Source: Octopus vulgaris
Taxonomy: Eukaryota
Assembly (NCBI GenBank): GCA_951406725.2
Contig: OX597827.1
Coordinates: 25,730,001-25,794,000, forward strand
Length of the DNA stretch: 64,000 nt
Reading direction: 5' to 3'
Shown: positions 6,641 through 55,499 of the stretch, piece after piece
Position numbering within the stretch: position 1 is the stretch's first letter
Layout of the letters: each line of letters starts with the position of its first letter
Position numbers and translations under genes: made by a program
Notes under the pieces: model-generated
Told to the model about the DNA's origin: nothing
The model's input: only the letters and a program-made list of their open reading frames with translations
Database searches by the model: none

Positions 6641-6696
6641 TTTGCATATATCAATAATAGATATAATTCAAAATATGAAGTCGTAGAAATATTAAA

Positions 6697-7105
6697 GGCG
6701 GCGAGCTGGCAGAAACGTTAGCACGCCGGGCGAAATGCTTAGCAGTATTTCGCCTGTCTTTACGTTCTGAGTTCAAATTCCACCGAGATCGACTTTACCT
6801 TTCATCCTTTCGGGGTCGATTAAATAAGTACGATTTATGCACTGGGGTCGATATATTCGGCTTAATCCGTTTGTCTGTCCTTGTTTGTCCTCTGTGTGTT
6901 TAGCCCCTTATGGATAGTAAAGAAATAGGTATTTCGTCTGCTGTTACGTTCTGAATTGATATTTGGTCGACTTTGCCTTTCATCCTTTCGGGGTCGATAA
7001 ATTAAGTACCATTTACGCACTGGCGTCGATGTAGTCGACATTATCCCTTTGTCTCTACTTGCCCCTCCCCATGTTTAGCCCCTTGTGGGCAGTAAAGAAA
7101 TAAGA
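6697..7105 (+). mobile_element. SINE family A, multimeric copy
   Basis: Full head ggcggcgagctggcagaaacgttagcacgccggg, followed by two core+tail units. Confidence 0.88.
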
Positions 7106-8630: not shown

Positions 8631-10191
8631 CTAATAATTTTAATAAATAATACTTAGAAAAGTATATGAAACGTTGTATTATCTGATAAATTTTATTTTG
8701 TGACCATAATTATAATTTGCTCTTTGATAAGTTTAGCCGTAATAGAGTGTGAGTTAGATACACGAGTAAAGGAGCAATTATGCAGTTACTCAAGAGACAT
8801 GAATTTATAAAGGATAAGAATTTAATAGAAAATATGCGAACTGAGTGAGGACTAACATCAATTTTCATTGGCGGCTCTAATTTCTATAAAAAGTCTGTAG
8901 AGATACATTTAAAAAGCCTCTATCTGAGGTTGATTCAAACCTATAAAACCTCAGGCGCTGACTCGGACACTCATTAGAGTTACTGACATAGGTGTGTGGA
9001 TAAGAGGCTCGCTTTGTAACCACAAGGTCCCGGGTTCAATCCACTGCACTGTACCTTTTAACCATGGCTTTGGATCCAGTGATGGAAACTGAGTTTAAGC
9101 TCACCAGATGTGTGTGTGTGTTTGTTTGTGTTTATGTCTGTCCCTCCCATTGCATGAGCACAGGTGTTAGTTTGTTTACATCACCGTAGCTTAGCAGTTC
9201 AATAAAATAGTAAGATAGAATAAATACTAGGCTTACAAATAAGCGCTGGTGTGACTGCGTTCCACTAAACATTCCAAGACACTGCTCCATCATGGCCTCA
9301 GTCAAATAAACGAAACCAGTAAAACAGAAAGATGACCGAGCATGGTGTGATGGTAACCGCATTAGTGGAATAGTTTGTGCATTATTGAACTGAGATCGCA
9401 TTCTCTCTAAACCAAAATGAGTAGGCAAGCAAAAGAGCTGGGTTACTAGGGACATAGAACAAGAACACGTTTTTCAGCCTTTGTAGCTTGGAGGTGTACG
9501 TAATATTAAAGTAAGATATCTCTAATTTTATCTTTACGAAAACGCTAGTCTAACTAGTTATATTGGCTGATAGCAAATACCTAATGCACTGATAAGAAAA
9601 CTAAGAATCGAACTTTCAGAAGTGCTAAGTAATTAAAGGGAAAAATTAAAACTAATTAACGATAATTAAATTTGTGTTTAAAATAATTATCTTTTAATTA
9701 TCAATGCTATATTTATCGATTGAGGTGTTTTATAAAATGTTATTAATACTTAGATATAATGACTTTTCTGTGTAGGCAGCTACTGCATAATATGATGTAG
9801 CACATTGATCCGAATGCACTAAGATGGCAGTTTTAAACAAGGTGCAACCGAGTGGGGTCGAATCTTAAGTCTTACGTAGGAGTTTGTATATTACCCCACA
9901 CACATACACAGACACACACAAACACATGCATACATATGTATCTGTGTGCGTGTGTGAAGGCGCATGAACTTGTGATTAGAGTGCACCACTCAGGATCGCA
10001 AGGTTGTGATTTCCATTCCCATCGAGGCGGTGCGTTGTAATTGCTGCGCAAAACACTTCGTTTCACGTTGCTCCTGTTCAGTCAGTTGTGAAAGGATAAC
10101 TCTGTGACCAGTTCAGAGGTGATCCTATCTCGCCTGCCCAGCCAGTGGGGTGACGTCATTTGAAAACTGATACAATATGACGAAGTACAAA

Positions 10192-10755
10192 GGCGGCGAC
10201 CTGGCAGAAACGTTAGCACGCCGGGCGAAATGCGTAGCCGTATTTCGTCTGCCGTTACGTTCTGAGTTCAAATTCCGCCGAGGTCGACTTTGCCTTTCAT
10301 CCTTTCGGGGTCGATAAATTAAGTACCAATTACGTAATGGATTCGATATAATCGACTTAATCCCGTTGTCTGTCCTTGTTTGTCCCCTCAATGTTTAGCC
10401 CATTGTGGGCAGTAAAGAAATAGGTATTTAGTCTGCCGCTACGTTCTGAGTTCAAATTCCGCCGAGGTCGACTTTGCCTTTCATCCAATTGGGGTCGATG
10501 AATTAAGTACCAGTTACGCACTGGGGTCGATGTAATCGACTTAATCCGTCTGTCTGTCCTTGTTTGTCTCCTCTGTGTTTAGCCCCTTGTGAGTAGTAAA
10601 GAAATAGGTATTTCTGCGTTCAAATTCTTCCGAGGTCAACTTTGCCTGTAATCCTTTCGGGGTTGATAAATTAAGTACCCGTTGCGTACTGGTTCTGATT
10701 TAATCGACTGCTCGCCTCCCAAAAATTTTGGGCCTTGTGCCTAGAGTAGAATAGA
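10192..10755 (+). mobile_element. SINE family A, trimeric copy
   Basis: One head followed by three B-box/core/tail units that restart at ggtattt (~10422 and ~10607). Confidence 0.88.
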
Positions 10756-13297: not shown

Positions 13298-16205
13298 ATG
13301 CCGGATCCTAGGTCCTACCTCCTCACCCTCCATCACCGTTTGAAGGATCATCTACGTTCGCTTCCTGTATATTGCCTTCAGCCGTCCGTTAATCTCTCTC
13401 TACTTCTTTTTAAAAAAACCCGCTTCTCTAGCCATGTCTCTTTCCTAAGCCGCTGCCTACATCACCGACTCATCCCTAAAGGTTTCCGCCTCCACTTCCA
13501 CCCTGCTCTCCACTCGGATTCTTCCATCTTACCCATACTCCGCACCACATCTTACCGCCTTATGCGGGCCACCATTCGCTCCAATCTCTCCAAACTACAT
13601 GCCATCAACCGCCTTCTTCCTCCTGCTTTCTCCACCTTCTTCTCCTCTCTGCCGCCTCTCTATGCTCCAAACACGCTACGCTTCATTATCCATTTGAATC
13701 AACTCTTCCATCAATTTCTTTCTGATACCAAACTTCGTAAACTCCAATCACTCTTCCATTCCACCCTACCCGACGCCACTACCCCAACTCCTCCACCACC
13801 CTTCTCCCCTCCCGATAGGCTCCATCCACCCACACCTAACCCCACTGCCCCTCCCTACAACCCCTTCTCCCCTCCCGTTAGGCTCCATCCACCTACACCT
13901 AACCCTACTGCCCCGCCCAACCACCCCCCACACACCTCTCCAATCCCTCCCCCTCAGACCTCCCCGAGACCTACCACCCCTCCTACTTCTATTCCATCCA
14001 CCCCTTCTCCACTTCCGTCTGTTGTTACCATTCCCCCCGATCTTCCCCTCTCTGCGGCTGAACGCTCCGTCCTTGGTAGGGGTCTGCGTTTCATCCCCCT
14101 CACTCCATCCTGTAAGGAATTCCAGACGCGAGTTGATGTCCACAGCTTTGTGCGCCGTGTCCGGTTGGGTGCGCATTACCACGACTCGCCACCCACACCC
14201 AACGAAGAGGACGACTGCTTCACTGGCCTGGGCCGCCGACCATCCCCGTGGACGCCTGCCCCTGGCCAGATCCTAGCAGTGGATCTTTTCGCGGGCGCTT
14301 GTCAGCGTGCATTGGAGCGGTTCAACTTCTCCAGGCGCCAACGCCGCCTCAACATCTCCCCGGCTGAGCTCTTGGCTCTTCGTTCCCTCCAACGGCGCGC
14401 TGACATTATCATCAAACCGGCTGACAAGGGTGGAGCTGTAGTGGTGTGGCGCGCGGACCTCTATAGGGCCGAGGCTTTCCGCCAACTCAATGACACCTCC
14501 TTCTATTCCCCTTCTGCCCTCTAACCCCACACGTAGCTACCAACAGACGGTATCCTCTACTGTCCAAGACCTCATCTCGTCCTCCCGTCTCCCCCGCACC
14601 GCATCCAACCTAATTGTGCGAACCCCACGTACCCCCACCATTTACTTCCTCCCCAAAATCCACAAACCCAACAACCCTGGCCGCCCCATCGTCTCCGCCT
14701 GTAACTGCCCCACGGAGCTCATCTCTAAATACCTCGACCGTGTCCTTGCCCCCCTAGTGGCATCTCTTCCCTCCCACATCCACGATACCAACCATGCTCT
14801 CCGGCTTTTCAACTCTTTCTCCTTTCCTCCCGGCTCCTCCAAAATCCTTTTTACTATGGACATCCAAAGCCTCTATACTGTTATCCCTCACCACGAAGGA
14901 CTGCAGGCCCTTCGACACTTTCTTGACCTCCGCTCTAACCCTGTACCTGATACCTCCACACTCATTCGTCTGGCCGAACTTGTCCTTACTCTGAACTGCT
15001 TCTCGTTCGCGGGCGAGTTCTACCATCAGGTCTCGGGAGTGGCCATGGGAACGCGAATGGGCCCCAACTATGCGAACCTGTTCGTTGGCTATGTTGAGGC
15101 CCAAATATTCTCTAATTTCACTGGTCCCACTCCTGAACTATATGGTCGTTATATTGACGACATTATCGGTGCCACCTCACTCTCCCGCGAACATCTAGAT
15201 TCCTTCCTCTCTTTCGTCCAATCTTTCCATCCAGCCCTCCGCTTCACTTCCACTATCTCCAACACCTCTGTCTCCTTCCTCGACATTTCGGTTAGCATTC
15301 TTCACTCCACTCTTACCACCTCCATTCACTACAAACACACAGACTCACACTCATACCTCAACTTCTCTTCCTCCCACCCAGAACACACCAAGCTTTCCAT
15401 CCCCTATTCCCAATTCCTCCGTCTACGTAGGCTCTGTAGTGACGACCATGACTTTGAGACTCAGTCTCAACGTATGGCTCACCACTTCCCCTACGTGGAT
15501 ACCCCCTCACCACTATCCACACCGCCCTTGCCAGAGCACGGTCCGTGGACCGTGTATCTGCTCTCTCTCCCCGAACCCGCCCTGCAGTCTCCCGCCTCCC
15601 TTTTCCCCTCACTTACCACCCCACGACCCTACGTCTCCAACGCACCATTCTTCGAGCTTTCCGTCATCTCCACTCCGACCCGTCCACTTCACACCTCTTC
15701 CCTAACCGACCCCTCCCCTCTTTCAAACGAGCCCACAACCTTCGAGACCTTTTGGTCCATAGCTCCTTCCCTGACCCTACCTCCCAACCCGGCTCGTTCC
15801 CCTGCTCCCGCCCACGTTGCCGCACTTGCCCTTACCTCTCCAACACCACCCGCCTCACTAGCACCCACCATCGACCCTATCCCATCATCCACTCCTTCAC
15901 CTGCACCTCCAGCAATATTATCTATTGCATCTCTTGCTCTCTCTGCAATTCCTTGTACATCGGACAAACGGGACGCCGCTTGGCTGACCGGTTCGCGGAA
16001 CACCTTCGTGACATCCACCTTGCGAACGACACACCGGTCTCACGCCATTTCCGCTCCACCGGTCACTCCTTGCAACACCTATCTGTGTTCGGTTTGTCCT
16101 TACACAGAGGCCATCCGGATTCCCGTTTGCGCCGTGAACAGGAATTAATCTTCTCTCTTCGCTCTTATACGCCATTTGGTCTCAACTCTCCCCCTCCTCA
16201 TCTAA
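13298..16205 (+). pseudogene. PLE polyprotein: reverse transcriptase + Cys linker + GIY-YIG endonuclease (frameshifts at ~14510 and ~15490, probably also ~16192)
   Basis: Motifs SHVSFLSRCLHHRLIPKG, IKPADKGGAVVVW, YFLPKIHKPNNPGRPIVS, TMDIQSLYT, GVAMGTRMGPNYANLF, RYIDD, FLD, CSRPRCRTC, IIYCISCSLCNSLYIGQTGRRLADRFAEH, REQELI..L....PFGLN across ORFs 13064-14524, 14490-16148 and 15545-16546. ATG at 13298. Confidence 0.93.
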
Positions 16206-16552
16206 CCCCCCCCCTTTCCCCCCTCCTCACCTATCCTTTCTCCCCCCGACCCCTACTTCTTCAGTCCTTCATCCTTTCACCCCTACTCCCCTTCCCTTCT
16301 TCCCTCTTTCTCCCTCCCTCTTCCCCTTCCCTCTGCTCCCTCACTCCCTCTCTCCCCTTCTCTCTCCCCCTCTCCCTCTTTCCTCCTTCATCCCCCTCAT
16401 CCCCTTCCTTCTCCCCCATCCTCTCCTCTCCCCCCTTCTCCTCCCCATCTTCTTCCCCTCCCCTTCTCTCTCCCCCCTCTTCTCCCCTCCCCCTCTTCTC
16501 CTCACTACACCACATGACTTTACACATCACATCACATCACATATGATGTGCC

Positions 16553-16890
16553 ATACTAATACACACACCAACTAATACATACTAATACGTACTAATACAT
16601 ACTAGTACATACTAATACTTACACCAACCCTATACATACACACGTCCAGACCCCGCATACGCACTTATACTCTCTCTCACACACACACACACACCTATAC
16701 ATACTAATACGTACTAATACATACTAATACATACTAATACATACACCAACCCCATACATACGCACGTCCAGACCAATCTTACGCACTAATACTCTCTCAT
16801 ACACACACACACACACACACACACCCTTATACATACTAATACATACACCAACCCTATACATACACACATCCAGACCCCTCCCACGCACTT
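16553..16890 (+). repeat. Tandem repeats in the PLE 3' region
   Basis: (actaatacat/cgt) 10-mers plus about three longer units containing acaccaaccc...catac...gtccagacc. Confidence 0.85.
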
Positions 16891-17060
16891 TTAGCTGGTC
16901 CCTCAACCCATTTATCAACCCTATTATCTCCCCTTATTTCGCTCTCGCGTCTCATGTTTGATCTTTGACCTCTGGCCGAAATCAGATCGCCATGTTGATT
17001 CGTTAGCTACTGCACGCATTTTTTTCTCTCCTTCTTTCTGTGTTTTTCTCTCTCTGTGTA

Positions 17061-17098
17061 TCTTTCTGTTGAAGAGCGTAGGCTCGAAACGTTAAAGA
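17061..17098 (+). ncRNA. Minimal hammerhead ribozyme-like motif of the PLE pseudo-LTR (variant core)
   Basis: tcttt-CTGTTGA-a-gagc(gtag)gctc-GAAAC-GTT-aaaga: stem I tcttt/aaaga, stem II gagc/gctc, palindromic ACGT stem III. The core is CUGUUGA rather than CUGAnGA. Confidence 0.7.
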
Positions 17099-17301
17099 CT
17101 TGTTTTATTTATATTTCCTGAGCGCCATACTAATACAATTGTTCGTTTGTTTTCCACCTGCCTTCGTCTTTTGTTTATTTTCATAAAGCTTCCCGTTATA
17201 TATATATATACATACATATGGCCCCCACCACCCCACTACCGTTTGACAACCAGTGTTAGTGTGATTATGTCTCTGTAACTTAGCGGTTCGGCAAAAGAGT
17301 A

Positions 17302-45850: not shown

Positions 45851-47998
45851 TTTGATGGAGTATATAGCAGCAAAGTTAAAGAGGTTATTTTGGCTTCCTA
45901 GTTACACATACAAAGTGTTTCGACTCGTCACACCGTCTAGGAAAAAAGAAGCCCTTGAGAAATTTGTATAATGTGAAAGTGTCTCTTTGCATGTAGGATT
46001 TAATGGAAATGAGGATAAAGCGTACACCGATCCGTGCATTGTAAATTAGCGGGTGTTTCTCACTCTCTCTCTCTCTCATTCTCTCCATCTCTCCCTCTCT
46101 CACACACACACTGAGTGTATGTACTAGAGATACTGGTGGGAGGGAAAATGTCCGTTGTAACAGCAAGTGCTCTGTGAAGTTTAATTCAAAATGTGCAATA
46201 AATAGATGGCATAGTATACACGACAAATGAAAAGATACATCGAATAGATTTAGCTGGAGATGCTGTGAAGTGCTAGAGATGATATAACAACACCACTGAA
46301 GTTACACATTTTCTATCATTTAACAGTTTAAAAAAGCTGGCCGTGACCAACAGTATAAAACTGGTGAATTATAAACAATGCAACTAAGGGAATAATATTA
46401 TATTGTATTTACGCATTTCGTACAGTAGACCAGAATATAAACATATTTCAAATTCTATATATGTTAAATAAATATGGAATAGACTCTTTTACAAATGACA
46501 TATTTTATCATTGCTCTATAGAACATTCAAACCCCTTGTGTCTAGAATAGACAGAATTGTCTCCAGCTTAGAAATTCAATCTTCAACGTGCTGCTAAAGA
46601 ATTATTTGAAAATATCAACTGACTTTTTTTTCTCGTAATACCTTAAAGTTTAATTAATTCCAACGTGCCACATAACGTCTATATCATTTCCATTCTTTAT
46701 TATTTTATTATATTTTTCATATTGTTTCTAGTTATATGGTTTCCAAAATTTATCTGAAGGCATAAAGCACACAAAAGAAAATACTTCTAATCTATTTTTC
46801 AAGGAACCAATATCTTTTCGGAATGTAAATATTACAATATGACGACTACAAGAACAAAGAAAGAAAATTAAACAAAACCTATGCAACGAAATAAATAACT
46901 AGAAGAGTAATTATACATTTCTGGTGATAGTGTCAATGGTAATAGAAAAATGCGTCATTTAAATATTCTATAGAATATATATTAGTAAGAGGAACCAACA
47001 GAGTTGGAGATGCAACAGTTTCTTTTTTCAACTGATTAAATACGGAACTTTAGTCACATATTTACAGAAAACATATATATACTTACTTAAGTATACATGT
47101 ATATGTGTGTATATAAATACGTATGTATATATATATATATGTGTATGTGTGTGTGTGTGTATAACTATGTATGCATGTAAATATACATATATATATATAC
47201 ATTTATAAGCATATATATATATACAGGTATGTATAAATACACACACGCGCCTATATATATTTTCACTCCTTTACTCTTTTATTTGTTTCAGTCATTTCAT
47301 TGCGGCCATACAGGAGCATCGCCTTTAGTTAAACAAATCGACCCCAGGGCTCATCCTTTGTAAGCCTAGTACTTAATCTATCGGTCTCTTTTGCCGAATA
47401 GCTAATTTACGGAGATGTAAACACACCAGCATCGTTTGTCAAGCGAAGGTGTGCGTGTGTGTGGGTGAGGGGATAAACACAGACACGCAAACATGTACAC
47501 ACACACACATACACACATATATATATATATATACGGCGGGCTTCCTTCAGTTTCCGTCTCAACTCACAAAGCTTTGGTCCGCTCTAGGCTATAGTAAAAG
47601 ACACTTGTCCAAGGTGCCACGCAGTGGGACTGAACCCGGAACCATGTATATGTATGCATGTATGTATACATATATGTATATGTATGCATGTATATGTATA
47701 TGTATGCATGTATGTATACATGTATGTATACATATATGTATGCATGTATGTATACATACATACATATGTATGTATACATACATACATATATACATGTATG
47801 TATATATACATACATACATAGATACACATACACTTACACACACACACACACATGAATTTGAAAGCATATACTATCTGGACATAATAGATTTCCATCCGTT
47901 AGCATCAGAAACACGTACTTCGAGCAACAGAACTCTACGTACATAACACGATGCTTTTAATACAAATGTTTGTATACAGGAAAAACATAAAGCATCTT

Positions 47999-48215
47999 AA
48001 AGTGTACTAGCCATCTCAATATGGCTAACCACTAAGGGTGGGTGTTACTGTAGCTTTTAGCCCCAGGAGATCATCGTCTCCAGCTGGCTTTAGGCACACT
48101 TTCTGTGCCCTTATGGTATTTGCAAAGGGAGGTCATCCCTCTCTCGTAAACCTAAGCGACACGCACGGACTGCAGTTACTAGGTTTTTGCCTGTCTTCAG
48201 CGTACGGCAGTCACC
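47999..48215 (-). repeat. Hammerhead-containing terminal repeat, copy 1 (3' of the LINE, same sense as the LINE)
   Basis: Reverse complement of 53719-53934 with one 1-bp indel; its first 50 bp are also repeated directly at 53669-53718. Confidence 0.95.
48162..48206 (-). ncRNA. Type I minimal hammerhead ribozyme motif (degenerate copy)
   Basis: Minus strand: CGTACG-CTGAAGA-CAGG-caaaaa-CCTA-GTAAC-TGCA-GTC-CGTGCG. Stem I CGUACG/CGUGCG, intact CUGAAGA and GUC site, GAAA mutated to GUAA. Confidence 0.78.
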
Positions 48216-48476
48216 GGTTTACGATTAATTCTTTATTACGATTATAAAATCAGTACATAGAAGAACAATACAGGACATACATACAAAAAACAGTTAAGTG
48301 GTTCGTTTAAAAATTTCCACAATATATGGATTATTCATTATACAAAAAACTGTATTTAAATTGTCCTTTGCATTGACTAATATAACATTACATTAGATTG
48401 AAATCTTACCGATATATTTTAAACCCCGGCAACCTATAAAGCCTCGCAGCTTTCCTTTCCTCTTCTCCATCCATAG

Positions 48477-51400
48477 TTAAACTGGGTTTCTGACACCCAC
48501 CTTTTTCGCCACTTCCTTCCATCTTTTTTCATACACACCTCGTGGTAAGGTCTTCTTTTCCAGCCCCATTTTGCTCTTCAGATGATATCTGAAGTAAGTG
48601 AGCAAGCCGGGGCCTGAGACAAAGGATCCTATTGCGACTCCTTCCATTCTTGTACGCCACATGCATTCTTTTACTACTGCAACCGTGCAGTGAAAACATG
48701 CCTCACCTTCCTTCGAGAGTCCAGTTGGCGGTATCATCTTAATCATAGACTCAGCCGACAGCTGTACTCGTTCCAGATGTGATAACACGTGTTCTGCGTA
48801 ACTTATCAAGTCTGACAACTGCCGACAGTGTACAAAAGCGTGCTGGACGGTTTCATCGTCCAACCCGCATCTTGGACATGTCAGTGGCACTGAAATTCCG
48901 TGCCGCGATAACTTCTCGCGAACAGGTAAAGCATTCCTATAACACTGCCGGGCCAGGGATCTTTGGAAATTATCCAAATACCCCGTCCTGAAAGTCTTTT
49001 TAAACAGGTTGGTAAGCTGGTCCTCGTCGAACCCCAGAGCCCCTCCTAGGATGTCGTCGTTCTTTGCCTCTACCAGCCTGCTATAAAATACCGAGATGGT
49101 ATTTCCGCAGCCGACCTTGCCCGCCTTGTGGATCAGCGTGAGTGCCTGTCGGCGTCTCCTTTTACCATAAAGTCAGATTCCGTCTTTTGAAGCAACCGGG
49201 TTTAAAATTCACGAAGGAAGCCGGTCTCGGGAAAAATTCTCCTGCCAGCGGATTCCACACCTTATCACCCTCCAGGTGGTGCCAGAGATGCTTCAGCCTC
49301 AACGCATGTCTGCGCATCATCAACCAAGGCATTCCTAACCCACCCTTTAACGGTTCCTGGCAGCAAACGGAGCGCCTCACACGTGGCTTTCCTCCCTTCC
49401 ACAAAAAGCGGAAAAGGATTCGCTCCAACTTGCTAAGCCATGAATCGGGGCAAGGGACAACGGTCAGGCGGTAAGTGATTACAGATGCAATGAACATCTG
49501 TACCACCTCCGCCCTTCCTTTCAAGGACAGAAACCTTCCGGACCAGGTCCGTACTATGGCCTCCACCTTGTCCGTCACCTCACTCCAATTCCTCTCCGTT
49601 TGGGGGTCTGGCCCAAACCAAACTCCTAGCAACTTAACAGGACCATCTGTCCAGTGTCCCACGGCACTGGACGATATCGACTTGCTCCTCCAGGTGCCGA
49701 GGCACAAGCCAATCGACTTGTTCTTGTTAACTTTTGCTCCTGCCACCGCCTCGTATCCTCTGATAGCATCTTCTACACAAGGTAGCTGAGCCTCATTGGA
49801 CACGATGAGGGTGACGTCACCCGCATAAGCAGAAACCGTCCCCCCGCCTCCGATCTCATCCGGGTTACTTCCCAGCCTCTACAACTTTCGCAGCAATGGC
49901 TCGAGAGCCAACACGTACAAAAGTGATGACAAGGGGCACCCTTGACGAACTGAACATTCGATCGGAAACGGTTTCGTTAGGTAACCGTTTATCTGGACGG
50001 TGGACTTGATGCCGCTATACATAGCGGAGATCCACCCGCGAAATTCAGGGCCCAGTCCAGCCGCTTCGAGGACCGTCGCCAGGTACTTATGGTCTACCCT
50101 ATCAAAGCTTTACTTTGGTCTAAATGGACCATTACCCCGCCCTTGCCGGTTAATTTACCCACCCTATCTAAAGTGTAGCGTATAAGGTGAAGATTTCCTG
50201 GATCGACCTGCCTGGAATTGCACATGTCTGTGCTTTCCCTACAAGTTTCTCCACGACAGTCGTCAACCTTTTTGCCAACACCTTGGCCAAAATCTTTAAC
50301 TCTACATTAAGTAGAGTTATGGGCCTGTAATTACTAATGTTATCCCCCTTGCTCGGATCTTTCTGGATTAGCGTCACCACTCCTCGGCTTACAGAACTGG
50401 GAATTCTCCCGTTCTGCTGCCAGTTCGCGTAGACGCCTGCCAGTATTCCCCCGAACAAGTCCGGCATACTTTGATAAAACTCGTAGGGCAGACCATCCAA
50501 CCCCGGCGACTTCTCCCCGGCGCATCCGGCCAGTACCCCCTCTATCTCCGCGGGAGTGATCGCTCCTTCACAGCACTCCACCTCACGCCCCGAGAGCCGC
50601 GGTCCGCCGGCTAGGAAGTCCTTTAAGGCCCTCCTCCGCTCCAGCGACCCCCCCCCCCCCTGAACGCGCGGGCGAAATGCTGGTGAAGAAACTTTTGCAT
50701 CTTCTCCTGTCCATAGATCTTGTGTCCCTTTTCGTCAGTTAAAGACTTGATTGAAGCTTTGTTACCTCTCTGACTCTCCACTCGACGGGCCCATCCGGCA
50801 ACGTTAATACCTTCTCGTTTCCCTGCGCGTAGCTTAGCTCTAACTCTGCAACCTTCGTGTTTGGAGTTAAGGTGACGGTACAATACCGTCCTTGCCGCCA
50901 TCACTCCGGATGCAGAGCCAGATTCCATTGCCTCGTTTAGATTCTTAACTAAATCGTCCTCTATCCTAGACCTATCTAACCTTAGCTGATTGCTAAATCT
51001 AATGGACTCTGAACGAATGGGTCTTTTGAGGGAGTGCCACCATCTATTGTTAATGATGGTGCCACACAATGCCCTCTGTACTAACACCTTAATCCGGGTA
51101 CGGAAGTCTTCACAATTCAAAATAGACTTGTTCAGCTTCCAGTACCCGGGTCCCTGTCTATGGCACTTATCTAATTGCACCCTACAAGTCACAAATTTGT
51201 GATCCGTGTAAGGCACAATGTGAAACTGTGGACAACTAAACGTATCCTTATCTCTTTTCCTAACGAATATCCTATCTATATACGATCTGCGTGAGCCGTC
51301 ATTGTTACTCCACGTCCACTGTGGAACGATCGGCTCATCCAGTCGATAACGGTCTACTAGATTAAAGCTCTCTAGTAGACCCTTGAGGCTAGGGTTCCCC

Positions 51401-51864
51401 TTCCTATTGGTTGAGCCAACACTGTCGACCCGCGCTTCGAGGACAGTGTTAAAGTCCCCTACAAAGACTACCGTTTTCGACGTCACTAAAAAGTGCTCCA
51501 GATTCCGAAAAAACCCAGACTGCCTACACTCATTCGGAGCGTAGACAGCTACCAATCTGAAGGACTGTTTACCTACGTGGGTCACATCCAGAACGACCAG
51601 CCTGCCTTTTGGGTCCAGAAAGACAGTACTTACCTGCAAGTCCAAGCTCTTCCTGATAAGACTGCCACGCCCCTTCCTCCTCACGGCTAGGAGAAATAAA
51701 TTTCTCGAAACCATTTAGAAGAGGCGAGAACGCTTTTACCCGCTCATCTTGGACTCGGTTACAATTGCTTCGTCCACTCCGTGTGTCGTGAGGTCGTTCT
51801 GGAGAAAACTTTGTTTCCATTTCGACCCCATTCCACGCACATTCACACAAACCAGCTTTACCAT
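48477..51864 (-). pseudogene. Tx1-type ORF2: apurinic-like endonuclease, reverse transcriptase, C-terminal zinc finger
   Basis: ATG at 51864 gives MVKLVCVNVRG (APE start). Further motifs: VYAPN, VFVGDFN, SYIDRIF, TDHK, GPGYWKLN, KSPGLDGLPYEFY, NYRPITLLNVELKILAKVLA, VRQGCPLS (~49930), SAYAGDVT (~49820, YADD altered), GGLGMP, CPRCGLDDETVQHAFVHC. Multiple frameshifts. Confidence 0.93.
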
Positions 51865-51891
51865 TGTCGGGGAGAGAGAAAAAAAATAAAC

Positions 51892-53292
51892 TTACGGTTG
51901 GGACAGGGAGCATGACAGTTTAAATCTGCATGCTTCCCCTTCTTCCTCCCTTGTGGAAGTAGCTGCAGGGCTCTTAACCGGCGTTGCCATCGGGCTCTGG
52001 GTAGGTGTGGTTGCCGGGGTTATAGTAAGTTTGCCCTCCAGTATTTCGTTAGTTACGTCTCTGATAAGGTTATTTTTTAAATGTTCTGGGAGTGTTTTTT
52101 CCTTCCACTCGTCTTCCTTTATTTTTGCAAAACGAGTGGTCGACTTAGTGTTTGCAGACTTACTGAATAATTTCAGTTTTGAAAATTTAAAATACTTAAA
52201 CACTCTATCGTTCCTCTCGTCGAATGCTACAATCTTTTCATTTTTTTAAATCAATTTTTTCCAATCTTGTTTTATGGGGAGGGGCTTGGCGAACTGTGTT
52301 CCAATGAATACAGTGCCGTGGGGGTAGGGCTGGGGAATTTATTTGTATGTATTTCTGCGGTGTTTGCTGATTTTCTCTTTGTTTGGGGAGGAGAGTCCAG
52401 GGTATTTTCTTTTTTTCTTTTGTGTGTCACCTGTGTAAATTCCATTTGTTCATTTTTATCTTCCGTTTCGATTCACTTCCTTGTCGCAGTCTTGGGGTCT
52501 TTTTCCGCCTTTTCTTTTTCTGTGTTTGAAGCACTTTGAGGAGGGGCTTCGCTTTTTTTCTTTTTTTTTTATGCAGTTCGAGCGGACGTGAGCCTTTTCA
52601 CCACATTTGAAACACCTAGGTCTGCGCCCCTCCACTGACACTCTCATTGAAATTCCCTCCTCAATAAATACCCTATCGGGTAAGTTTTCTAGCACAATTA
52701 TTTTCTGCTTGAACGAGGAGTTCGAGCGCTTGTCCCTTCCAGTTTACCTCCTCTTTCCTTTTCATCTGCAGAATTGAGACTTTCTGCTCTACGTCGTGCA
52801 GAACCGCCGCTGCTACCCACATTATATCATATCCTCTTGGAATGTCTTCCACATATAGTTTCGCAGTTCTTTTGCCCATATAGGTAGGTAGTAACATGAT
52901 GTCCTCACTTTTTAAGGTCATCGATGAAATCTCTCTTGCCACATCAGCCGAGTCGAAATGTGCTTCAACGGTAGCGCTGCGGGCACCTCGACCGACGTAG
53001 CGAATTTTGCTCCACACCGGGGACAAGCACTTCTCTACTATTTCGTTCTTCACGTCCATTATTTTTTCTCTTTGTTACTGTAAACCTCGTACACGACTGT
53101 CTTGGCCTTTATTTCCTGTAATATTGCTTGCGGCGGTACCAGTTTTATTTCGTTGCCTTCCTTTTTGACCAAGTTCCGGTATTCGAACAACTGTTCTATT
53201 TTGAATTCCACTTCCGTTACGGTACCTTCTGTTCGCCTTTTCCCATCACAGGAAAGCCGCTCCTCGACTCCAAGTCGAACTCCATTTCTCAA
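51892..53292 (-). pseudogene. Tx1-type ORF1 (nucleic-acid binding, zinc knuckle), frameshifted
   Basis: Consecutive ORFs 53059-53292, 52673-53059, 52456-52695 (EGRRPRCFKCGEKAHVRSNC) and 51892-52203. Several breaks coincide with poly-T runs. The start codon is uncertain. Confidence 0.8.
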
Positions 53293-53668
53293 ATTATGAG
53301 AACCAATTTTTCAAGAAAAAAAAAAAAAAATTACCCTGAAGGTAATAACAATGTTTATACACAGAATTTTCAGCCCCGTAGGGCGAAAATTACTGTCACG
53401 CAACGGACAACTGTTCAATTCACGAGCAAACACAAACAACGACGAACAAAAAACGAACTCACTCAACAAAATAGGCAGCTAACTTCTCTATACGCAGATG
53501 AAAGAGGGGTCCCTAGACGAGTCAAAACACCGGTTTACGATGAAAGGAAAGCCTGTTTGCAAATACTTATGGGTTTTTCTAGTAACTTCCGTCACTGATT
53601 TCGAAAAACTGTCTGCAAGCAATAATAAATCTCTGAATGAGATGTAAACAGTAACCGCTCGACAACGT

Positions 53669-53718
53669 AAAGTATACTAGCCATCTCAATATGGCTAACC
53701 ACTAAGGGTGGGTGTTAC
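53669..53718 (-). repeat. 50-bp direct copy of the terminal repeat end, abutting the LINE 5' end
   Basis: aaagtatactagccatctcaatatggctaaccactaagggtgggtgttac equals 47999-48048 with one mismatch. Confidence 0.96.
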
Positions 53719-53934
53719 GGTGATTACCGTACGTTGACAAGAGGCAAATACCTCGAAACTGCAGTTCGTGCGTATCGCTTAGGTTTACGAGAGAGGAATA
53801 ACCTCCCTTTGCAAATACCATAGGGCACAGAAAGTGTGCCTAAAGCCAGCTGGAGACGATGATCTCTTGGGGCTAAAAGCTACAGTAACACCCACCCTTA
53901 GTGGTTAGCCATATTGAGATGGCCAGTATACTTT
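53719..53934 (+). repeat. Hammerhead-containing terminal repeat, inverted full copy
   Basis: ggtgattaccgtacg...gagatggccagtatacttt is the reverse complement of 47999-48215. Confidence 0.95.
53728..53772 (+). ncRNA. Type I minimal hammerhead ribozyme motif (degenerate copy)
   Basis: CGTACG-TTGACAA-GAGG-caaata-CCTC-GAAAC-TGCA-GTT-CGTGCG. Perfect stem II and GAAA, palindromic ACUGCAGU stem III, core CUGAnGA mutated to UUGACAA. Confidence 0.78.
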
Positions 53935-54336
53935 CGTAAAAGATGGAAGTATATAGCAAGAATGTTGCGAGTGAAAGAACCTATTTAAACGAGAATATAA
54001 AAAGGAGAAAGCAAAGTCTTCAGTGTGAGTATGTGGTTTGTGGGGTCAACCGCGTCCTCCGCTTCACTTTTTGTCAATCACTTATTCTCATTTAATTGTA
54101 TATATTTTAATTGTTTGTTTATTCATACGTTTCGTCTCATGCGATACCCTGACCTCAATGTTTATTTTGTCTGTCCCCTCTTTTTCTCAACCTTATGGTG
54201 AATAAAGAAATTCTCTCTCTCAGTCTCTTTGCCTATCCTTTCAACTACACCAGACGCCCCAGCACGAAACAGGTTTTGTGTCTCTCTCTGTCTTCCCCTC
54301 CACCTCTCACTTTTTCTTAATAGCACACCACAAAGC

Positions 54337-54424: not shown

Positions 54425-54800
54425 TGCCTGCAAGACCAAACCTGACGACATTAACCACATTATGTCCAGTTGTGAGAGAATGTCTTCCAGATGTTATCCT
54501 CCTATGACGTATGATGCAGTGGCTGAGACAGTTCAGAACAGGATCACAGAAGAAGGAAATGCCTGCAGACGATGTTGGCTATATTGAGACCGATGGGTCA
54601 AAAGAAGATTAGCGGAACTCAAAAACTGAAACAACTACATTCATGGACAAGTGATAAGGCGTTTGCCAATCGAGAACCCAAGATATACTTTCAGCTTTAT
54701 ATTTATCATTATTAGAGCAACAGGTCACAACCCCAACCTGTCTGGCGCAAAGTTTAGCTGAACCAGCTTCCTTGAGGAATGCACATAATTCCTTAATTTT
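54425..54800 (+). mobile_element. Degenerate RLE-type LINE fragment (CCHC region)
   Basis: Translates CKTKPDDINHIMSSCERMSSRCYPPMTYDAVAETV, similar to C..ETI.HI.S.C......Y..RHD.VA. Confidence 0.5.
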
Positions 54801-54804
54801 TAAT

Positions 54805-55031
54805 GCTTTATTGTCCACAGGGGGATAAGCATAGAGGAGACAAACAAGGACAGACAAATGGATTAAGTCGATTACATCGACTCCAGTGAGTAACTGGTAC
54901 TTATTTAATCGACCCCGAAACAATGAAAGGCAACGTCGACCTCGGCAGAATTAGAACTCAAAGCGTAACGGTAGACGAAATACCGCTAAGCATTTTGCCC
55001 CGCGTGCTAACGATTCTGCCGGCTCGCCGCC
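54805..55031 (-). mobile_element. SINE family A copy
   Basis: Reverse complement of the head, cgtgctaacgattctgccggctcgccgcc, plus the core. Other copies at 57838-58035(+), 58500-58705(-) and 38595-38680(-). Confidence 0.85.
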
Positions 55032-55499
55032 TAATAAACAACTGATCACGACATCTGGGACAATAACAAATCTGCACGATTTAAAGGATGGACAAAACAA
55101 GGTACTTCCCTTCACAATCTTGCTCCCAAACAGGGTCCGATCAAAATTTATTTTAAATTAAAAAGTGAAAGAGAATAACCAGTCACTCATCTGGGAAGCC
55201 CTTGAAATCAATGTTACCATGTGGGGACTATGTGTGACCCAGTGATCATAAAAAGACTGAAAGGAGATCTACAATAAAATAACGTTACTTAACACTTTGC
55301 AACTGGATCAGTGGAGGCAAAGATGCTTCTCATTTACTTGGCAATTTATGCAGCACATTGCAGAAATCACAATCTAAGTGTATGTTAAAGCAAACTCTTA
55401 CACTGTTGTACCATTGAATTACAAATAATGCTCATCTTCTATGCTCGGATGATTCCACAGCTTCCAAGAGTACAACTATTCGTCTTTGCTTAGATAAAA

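Follow-up and report, generated by a model that had tools for sequence, protein, structure and literature searches.

Metazoan non-LTR retrozymes have been described with monomers of 350-390 nt in mussel and 330-350 nt in axolotl (PMC7229834), and according to a 2020 review retrozymes seem to be without promoters (PMC7761336). Animal retrozymes have been proposed to be non-autonomous Penelope derivatives (10.64898/2026.07.22.740005), a proposal on which the mussel and axolotl work also bears (PMC7229834), and the anatomy of Penelope insertions is available for comparison (10.1101/2021.04.23.441226). In newt satellite 2, an snRNA-type promoter has been reported (Coats et al. 1994, as cited in PMC2220036). 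Target-specific Tx1 elements are likewise a described group (PMC4494074; PMC8869645), while the R2 element is co-transcribed with its 28S rDNA target and processed by a ribozyme (PMC4494074; PMC7761336). In Octopus vulgaris, 13 recently active L1-Tx1 families with a mean length of 5.4 kb have been reported, and the words hammerhead and ribozyme do not occur in that article (PMC13282606).

We analyzed a window of 64,000 nt from O. vulgaris (contig OX597827.1, positions 25,730,001 to 25,794,000), in which a LINE interrupts a monomer of a hammerhead-bearing repeat. Its features, in window coordinates, are the following.

53718..53937, forward strand: inverted, 5′-truncated retrozyme copy, from sequence comparison (the interval treated in a preliminary description of this DNA)
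53728..53772, forward strand: type I hammerhead of the inverted copy, read from the sequence and the family structure
53668..53721, reverse strand: partial upstream tandem copy, the last 54 nt of the retrozyme unit, from sequence comparison
53542..53668, reverse strand: 127-nt spacer that completes the ~355-nt monomer and is not LINE sequence, from other copies and the array
53593..53599, reverse strand: ATCAGTG motif, a candidate proximal sequence element of the snRNA type, with the insertion site 57-58 nt downstream
53528..53541, reverse strand: 14-bp target-site duplication, 5′ copy, beginning with the putative transcription start
48226..53527, reverse strand: L1/Tx1-type LINE, family A, 5,302 bp, with frameshifts and stops in the window copy
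51890..53285, reverse strand: approximate extent of the ORF1 remnant; other copies encode 475-477 aa, including a zinc knuckle
48477..51864, reverse strand: ORF2 remnant with AP endonuclease, RT and zf-RVT, open (1146 aa) in locus L153
48212..48225, reverse strand: 3′ copy of the target-site duplication
47998..48225, reverse strand: 228-nt remainder of the interrupted monomer
48162..48206, reverse strand: type I hammerhead that follows the LINE, with a C3-G8 core and a cut predicted after C48168

The inverted copy (53718-53937, forward) and the copy at the LINE 3′ end (48225-47998, reverse) share 92% identity over 217 nt, and the inversion junction carries CGGT microhomology (53718-53721). The sequence ATCGTAAACCGGTG occurs twice around the LINE (53541-53528 and 48225-48212) and constitutes the 14-bp target-site duplication; the LINE 3′ end in the window copy reads AATAAAGAATTA, without poly(A). 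The preliminary description had placed the LINE at a CTTT^CGT junction close to hammerhead stem I, on its upstream side. The fixed position relative to stem I was borne out, but the LINE lies instead between the two copies of the duplication, which that description overlooked together with the genome-wide site specificity of the LINE family. It had also treated the 127-nt stretch as the LINE 5′ end, a stretch that is retrozyme spacer, continuous with retrozyme units elsewhere. AAGATG does stand at both outer ends, as had been noted, so that the empty site is nearly palindromic; it is not an alternative monomer boundary. Unlike other inverted insertions, the retrozyme insertion in the window has no tail at either end. 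Contigs of four organism codes, which may represent close or identical species, cover the retrozyme and the LINE, and one contig with a different organism code runs across the LINE 5′ junction into the spacer (window 53225-53643). All 30 bins are covered by four contig sets, two of them guessed to be RNA, in which strand, ends, level, circles and expression are not readable. The window also holds a different dispersed repeat of ~240 nt, in three copies with 83-84% similarity (6696-6927, 10191-10431 and 54792-55032).

In other genomic copies the 228-nt unit is followed by the 127-nt spacer, the sequence found at window 53668-53542, and then by the next unit. The head-to-tail copies proposed in the preliminary description, for a non-LTR retrozyme of animal type, were recovered at a periodicity of 355 rather than ~225: an array on contig C4 has a period of 355, 10.2 copies and 99% matches (TRF), dimers and partial tandems are present at other loci, and most copies are free of the LINE. 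First-look candidates for two parts of the monomer numbered 2,318 and 2,744 in the 2.8-Gb assembly of 227 contigs, which are rough lower bounds. The hammerhead repeat has a monomer of ~355 nt and is present in thousands of copies, and on its sequence organization it is a non-LTR retrozyme family.

Parsed by hand after the metazoan type I layout (PMC4209133), the family hammerhead has a 6-bp stem I, a 4-bp stem II and a 2-bp stem III with a palindromic loop. Among the 97 of 131 distinct segments that parsed, core positions 3 and 8 are C-G in 49, U-A in 37, U-G in 10 and unpaired in 1 (paired in 96/97), and the cleavage triplet is GUC in 92. The inverted copy has the U3-A8 core variant, with stem I at 53728-53733/53767-53772, a 4-bp stem II, a palindromic loop 3 and a predicted cut after U53766 (GUU). 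The hammerhead behind the LINE has GTAA in place of the conserved GAAA (48178), where other sequences carry the canonical base, and because of this core mutation it is probably inactive. The core is complete in 10/10 units of the C4 array. Across 26 diverse copies, 89.5% of cells pair, against 83.1% in shuffles and 26-44% in slid controls, and two-sided changes occur at 14/29 pairs, a type of count that relatedness inflates. The predicted co-fold of a hammerhead dimer reaches -32.1 kcal/mol against 2 x -11.2 for monomers, an advantage of ~10 kcal/mol that matches expectation for a dimer-dependent ribozyme. For the whole monomer, the predicted fold (-115.6 kcal/mol, z = -5.7, 0/100 shuffles as stable) is a long rod closed by the hammerhead, with a rod stem that spans the LINE insertion site; the hairpin and palindrome motifs quoted in the preliminary description are present. 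Rfam reported no hammerhead family in the window and three loci. The retrozyme would be expected to cleave as a dimer and to form circular RNA.

After removal of duplicates, array members and LINE-bearing copies (15/58), 43 loci were kept for a survey of insertions. Retrozyme copies lie on many contigs, with variable 5′ ends and fixed 3′ ends, and 58 of 59 3′ ends in these loci fall into two clusters, at monomer positions 355-7 or 46-57. An inverted arm is present at 16/43 loci, in all 16 with a ~50-nt tail on one end only, and short direct duplications were judged by eye to accompany 9 of the 16. Microsatellites flank 20 of the 43 insertions, and 25 exceed 400 nt. This anatomy is of the Penelope type, and the retrozyme is therefore most likely copied in trans by a Penelope-like element (PLE). 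Among 60 GIY-YIG loci (30 of 6,136 candidates with the Pfam GIY-YIG domain and 30 of 15,993 from a second GIY-YIG clade), none held an autonomous PLE carrying the repeat as pLTR; two incidental fragments of the retrozyme turned up, one of 59 nt in L214 and one on the opposite strand in L223. Nor was an RT or GIY-YIG frame found upstream, in sense, of a retrozyme copy in 163 loci tested, where the five RT/GIY-YIG matches belonged to four loci representing two places, with the match downstream in sense at one place and on the opposite strand at the other. PLEs with similar hammerheads are numerous in this genome; in one abundant family (781-aa frame; L168-L193) a U3-A8 hammerhead with a palindromic loop lies 0.4-1.1 kb behind the GIY-YIG domain. 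The window itself contains a frameshifted PLE (13300-17200, forward) with RT and GIY-YIG matches and, near 17065-17100, a different hammerhead-like motif; this element, at 13.3-16.2 kb, shows no similarity to the 355-nt repeat. A 5S rRNA copy lies near one retrozyme (L108:2561-2680).

The LINE of the window belongs to family A, in which ORF1 has a zinc knuckle and ORF2 has AP endonuclease, RT and zf-RVT domains (Pfam). The closest solved protein is human L1 ORF2p (E 4e-64; R2, E 4e-25), and the closest named LINE protein relative is from Argonauta hians, at 63% identity. We classify family A as L1/Tx1-type, the Tx1 label being drawn from architecture and behavior. Target specificity was assessed with LINE-internal queries holding no target sequence, taking for each end the best 40 of ~180 candidates, window copy included. 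Thirty-eight of 40 3′ ends run straight into the hammerhead repeat and 38/40 5′ ends are preceded by the spacer; the four other ends (two 3′ ends running into the duplication and another LINE, two 5′ ends preceded by another LINE's 3′ end) are LINE tandems stacked at the retrozyme site. Included in the counts of 38 are two ends with hammerhead deletions, two in a distant repeat family (L154, L155), one at which the LINE is clipped and one with a deletion spanning the 5′ junction. The distant family, a ~360-nt hammerhead repeat with a CCGATGA core, is a target of 5′-truncated family A copies. Most family A copies fetched are full length, with the repeat on both sides.

Within the monomer the LINE inserts at TTC^ATCG, which precedes hammerhead C3 by 25 nt, and a duplication of ~14 bp results. 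Duplications agree with the host subfamily, vary in length and start 0-4 nt apart; the idea that mismatches between them betray donor-derived leaders was dropped, as ordinary decay explains them. In 26 full-length elements, mean divergence is 5% for LINE bodies and 16-24% for flanks. The upstream flank correlates with the downstream flank (rho 0.67 and 0.42), while rho between the LINE 3′ body and the flanks is 0.02-0.09 and that between the LINE 5′ body and the downstream flank is weakly positive (0.26-0.27, p 0.02-0.04). Since LINE bodies only ~5% divergent reside in hosts ~20% divergent, the insertions are independent. The junctions and duplications show an L1/Tx1-type LINE, unrelated to the retrozyme, that inserts at one site of the monomer by target-primed reverse transcription, independently into many subfamilies.

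A sister family, B, shares ~82% identity with family A. Among 30 family B ends with loci, of 40 matches, 19 are at the retrozyme site and 4 at U2 snRNA, at Rfam model position 1; 1 has a U2-type duplication and another B copy, 1 a duplication and family A, 3 adjoin a third LINE-like 5′ end and 2 are elsewhere, off target. One off-target copy (L243) still lies at ATCGC, and no insertion at U1 +1 (ATAC) occurs among the ends examined. The junctions thus show a second family B site at base +1 of U2. Copies inserted in U2 nest among, and are nearly identical to, copies inserted in retrozymes, and four of the five U2 copies lie in one cluster on C3. The U2 genes with family B at base +1 (L245-L249, L267; C3:20.79-20.83 Mb; C23:43.31 Mb) are split from their upstream regions. 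At the L245 and L267 junctions, the U2 duplication is followed by a retrozyme-type 14-mer starting ATCG and then by the LINE 5′ end, which suggests a source copy inside a retrozyme, with an RNA beginning at ATCG; these two junctions, in one cluster, may represent one event. The third LINE-like 5′ end (L227, L252, L253) has a divergent zinc-knuckle ORF, follows family B ends and, in two cases, stands behind a retrozyme-type duplication. A tRNA-like SINE is apparently inserted in the family B 5′ region (L156, L041, about 300 nt behind the LINE end).

An ORF2 protein search yielded closer relatives, 93-99% identical in amino acids to L153 over the ORF2 C-terminus, with 13 presumed 3′ ends: 1 adjoins the retrozyme, 5 one repeat, 3 another repeat, 2 a further LINE and 1 something else, and 1 has no clear end. 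With only 1/13 ends at the retrozyme, start-site targeting does not characterize the lineage as a whole. Rfam gave no match for the other LINE targets, and the motif described below is absent from two upstream regions of the relatives' commonest other target. One young relative (ORF2 open, 1148 aa, many similar-scoring copies) forms head-to-tail arrays, the longest of about nine units, with a ~5.28-kb period (among them C5:29.18-29.21 Mb and C9:59.21-59.25 Mb; L254-L260, L266). Its target begins ATCTACTGAG, resembles a short hairpin followed by a T run and has no Rfam match. Other close relatives (L261, L262 and L268 on C27 and C2; L263) lie in another shared repeat, many of them at C27 22.8-26.3 Mb.

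Five U1 and two U2 upstream regions all carry a related motif at -58 to -55 (TCAGTG in 3, TCAGTC in 2, TCATCG in 2). In the retrozyme, TCAGTG stands at -61 to -55 of the insertion site in 57/67 distinct copies, and at a similar distance in 8/9 representatives, the most distant families included. The exact TCAGTG occurs in only 3/7 snRNA regions, the shared core being 4-6 nt, and the shuffle p of 0.0015 is an uncorrected value for a short motif chosen after inspection. Judged by eye, the motif could also be kept as the arm of an RNA hairpin. Among 27 non-inverted retrozyme copies, four have ATCG as their exact start; some of these four border (AT)n, making the end uncertain by two bases. These observations lead us to favor, with some reserve given the length of the motif and its selection after inspection, a retrozyme with an snRNA-type promoter and a LINE that inserts at its start site.

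The explanation that we consider best, with a probability of roughly 0.6, has three layers: a retrozyme, a site-specific LINE, and insertion at an snRNA-type start site. ATCG would be the start site of a promoter in the spacer, such that each monomer would drive the next, and a full-length LINE at +1 would be transcribed from the retrozyme promoter with no host gene harmed. The target is probably recognized through the sequence preference of the endonuclease, with a possible contribution from RNA-primer pairing; this would account for the spill-over to U2 +1, where the sequence is likewise ATCG. More speculatively, the hammerhead that follows the LINE at a distance of 60 nt may trim LINE read-through RNA, in keeping with a LINE 3′ junction that is precise and has no poly(A). 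Should all of this apply, the LINE would be a hyperparasite sitting at the retrozyme +1, taking its 5′ end from the retrozyme promoter and its 3′ end from the retrozyme hammerhead, and recently doing likewise at U2 +1; we offer this fuller picture only tentatively.

The same site specificity might reflect a safe haven, in which the endonuclease recognizes TTC^ATCG in an abundant repeat. The site would then not be a start site, the LINE would be driven by a promoter of its own, and the -57 motif would reflect RNA structure or chance. Such a choice would be in keeping with known Tx1 families, which target DNA transposons, LTR elements, microsatellites and satellites (PMC4494074), and with the ATCGC context of L243, the lack of insertions at U1 +1 among the ends examined and the unrelated targets of near relatives. 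It does not account, however, for a second target at exactly U2 +1, for the constant distance of the motif in U1, U2 and highly divergent retrozyme subfamilies, or for a carried leader that starts at ATCG, and we regard it as unlikely, if with an appreciable chance. It is also conceivable, though rather improbable, that the repeat is the pLTR of an unseen autonomous PLE and the short copies its truncated insertions. The Penelope-like insertion anatomy, the U3-A8 hammerheads of other PLEs in this genome and the derivation of Xenopus retrozymes from pLTRs (10.64898/2026.07.22.740005) would agree with this, and the 60 GIY-YIG candidates checked are a sample of thousands; against it stand the pure 10-copy array, the 163 loci without an upstream sense RT/GIY-YIG frame, and the spacer, LINE or flank that is found upstream of units. 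Adopting it would alter the label, not the LINE result.

As the window resembles a Penelope element with the LINE as its body, the retrozyme and LINE might move together (as a hammerhead-repeat LINE or a 5.6-kb giant retrozyme), or the LINE might mobilize the retrozyme, and both the predominance of full-length LINE copies with the repeat on either side and the weak correlation of the LINE 5′ body with the flank could be read this way. Composite transposition is largely refuted by LINE and flank divergence and the rho comparison in the 26 elements. Near-identical LINEs occupy hosts 20% apart, and duplications of variable length match the host subfamily. LINE-free copies are also far commoner (2,318-2,744 against ~180 first-look candidates), and LINE-free insertions have inversions, one-sided tails and no 3′ end in common with the LINE, which makes joint movement very improbable. 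The preliminary description had instead joined the end of one copy to the start of another, through a 6-bp overlap, into a circularly permuted monomer of ~225 nt closed at CTTT^CGT. This overlap is a coincidence: other copies read ...TACTTTACGTTG, and the inverted copy is one A short and then enters the flank. The predicted 19-mer (the 17-mer of that description extended by the two bases before it) is matched exactly nowhere in the 2.8 Gb, the period is 355, and a spacer separates the units in every tandem observed. The identification of a retrozyme with a type I hammerhead stands, whereas a 225-nt size has practically no chance of being right.

The three-layer explanation relates to described systems as follows. 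The retrozyme alone is an extension of a known class to cephalopods, for which no retrozyme family was found in the literature searched. With metazoan retrozymes it shares a tandemly repeated non-coding monomer in the 170-400 nt range, a single type I hammerhead in each unit, a weak palindromic helix III and a highly paired fold; it differs in its candidate internal snRNA-type promoter, which would mark a promoter and a start site in an animal retrozyme, where the 2020 review saw none (PMC7761336). Its type I hammerhead, U3-A8 covariation, partial tandems, inverted 5′-truncated arm, one-end tail and microsatellite bias are shared with Penelope pLTRs and their derivatives (PMC4209133; 10.1101/2021.04.23.441226; 10.64898/2026.07.22.740005), from which it differs in having no ORF, no master element among the loci sampled and a tail of ~50 nt rather than 30-40.

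The LINE has the ORF1, the APE-RT-zf ORF2, the fixed multicopy site and the ~14-16-bp duplication of Tx1L, Keno, Kibi, Koshi and Tx1-Mar, together with tandem stacking around the duplication and target switching among relatives, but its target is a ribozyme-bearing retroelement (PMC4494074). No LINE targeting retrozymes or pLTRs, and none inserting at an snRNA +1, was found in the literature searched, mostly at the level of titles and abstracts and with Repbase outside its scope; satellites are among the Tx1 targets listed in PMC4494074. The LINE thereby adds a target class not found in that literature, a retroelement predicted to be self-cleaving and probably dependent on Penelope, which would make three tiers of parasitism. 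Its close relatives (93-99%, ORF2 C-terminus) with different targets, some of them young with open ORF2, form a natural series for how AP-type endonucleases change specificity. The U2 site of Keno and Utopia lies near nucleotide 38. These two share a common site inside U2 (PMC4640811), whereas family B inserts at base +1.

Newt satellite 2, from a vertebrate host, is also a hammerhead tandem repeat. We know of no LINE that targets it. An snRNA-type promoter inside the monomer is reported for the newt repeat (PMC2220036) and is a candidate here. The likeness to R2 would lie in a reliance on transcription of the target and on an adjacent ribozyme; R2 has its own 5′ HDV-like ribozyme and a restriction-like endonuclease, whereas the ribozyme that would serve the octopus LINE is part of the target and stands on the 3′ side of the LINE.
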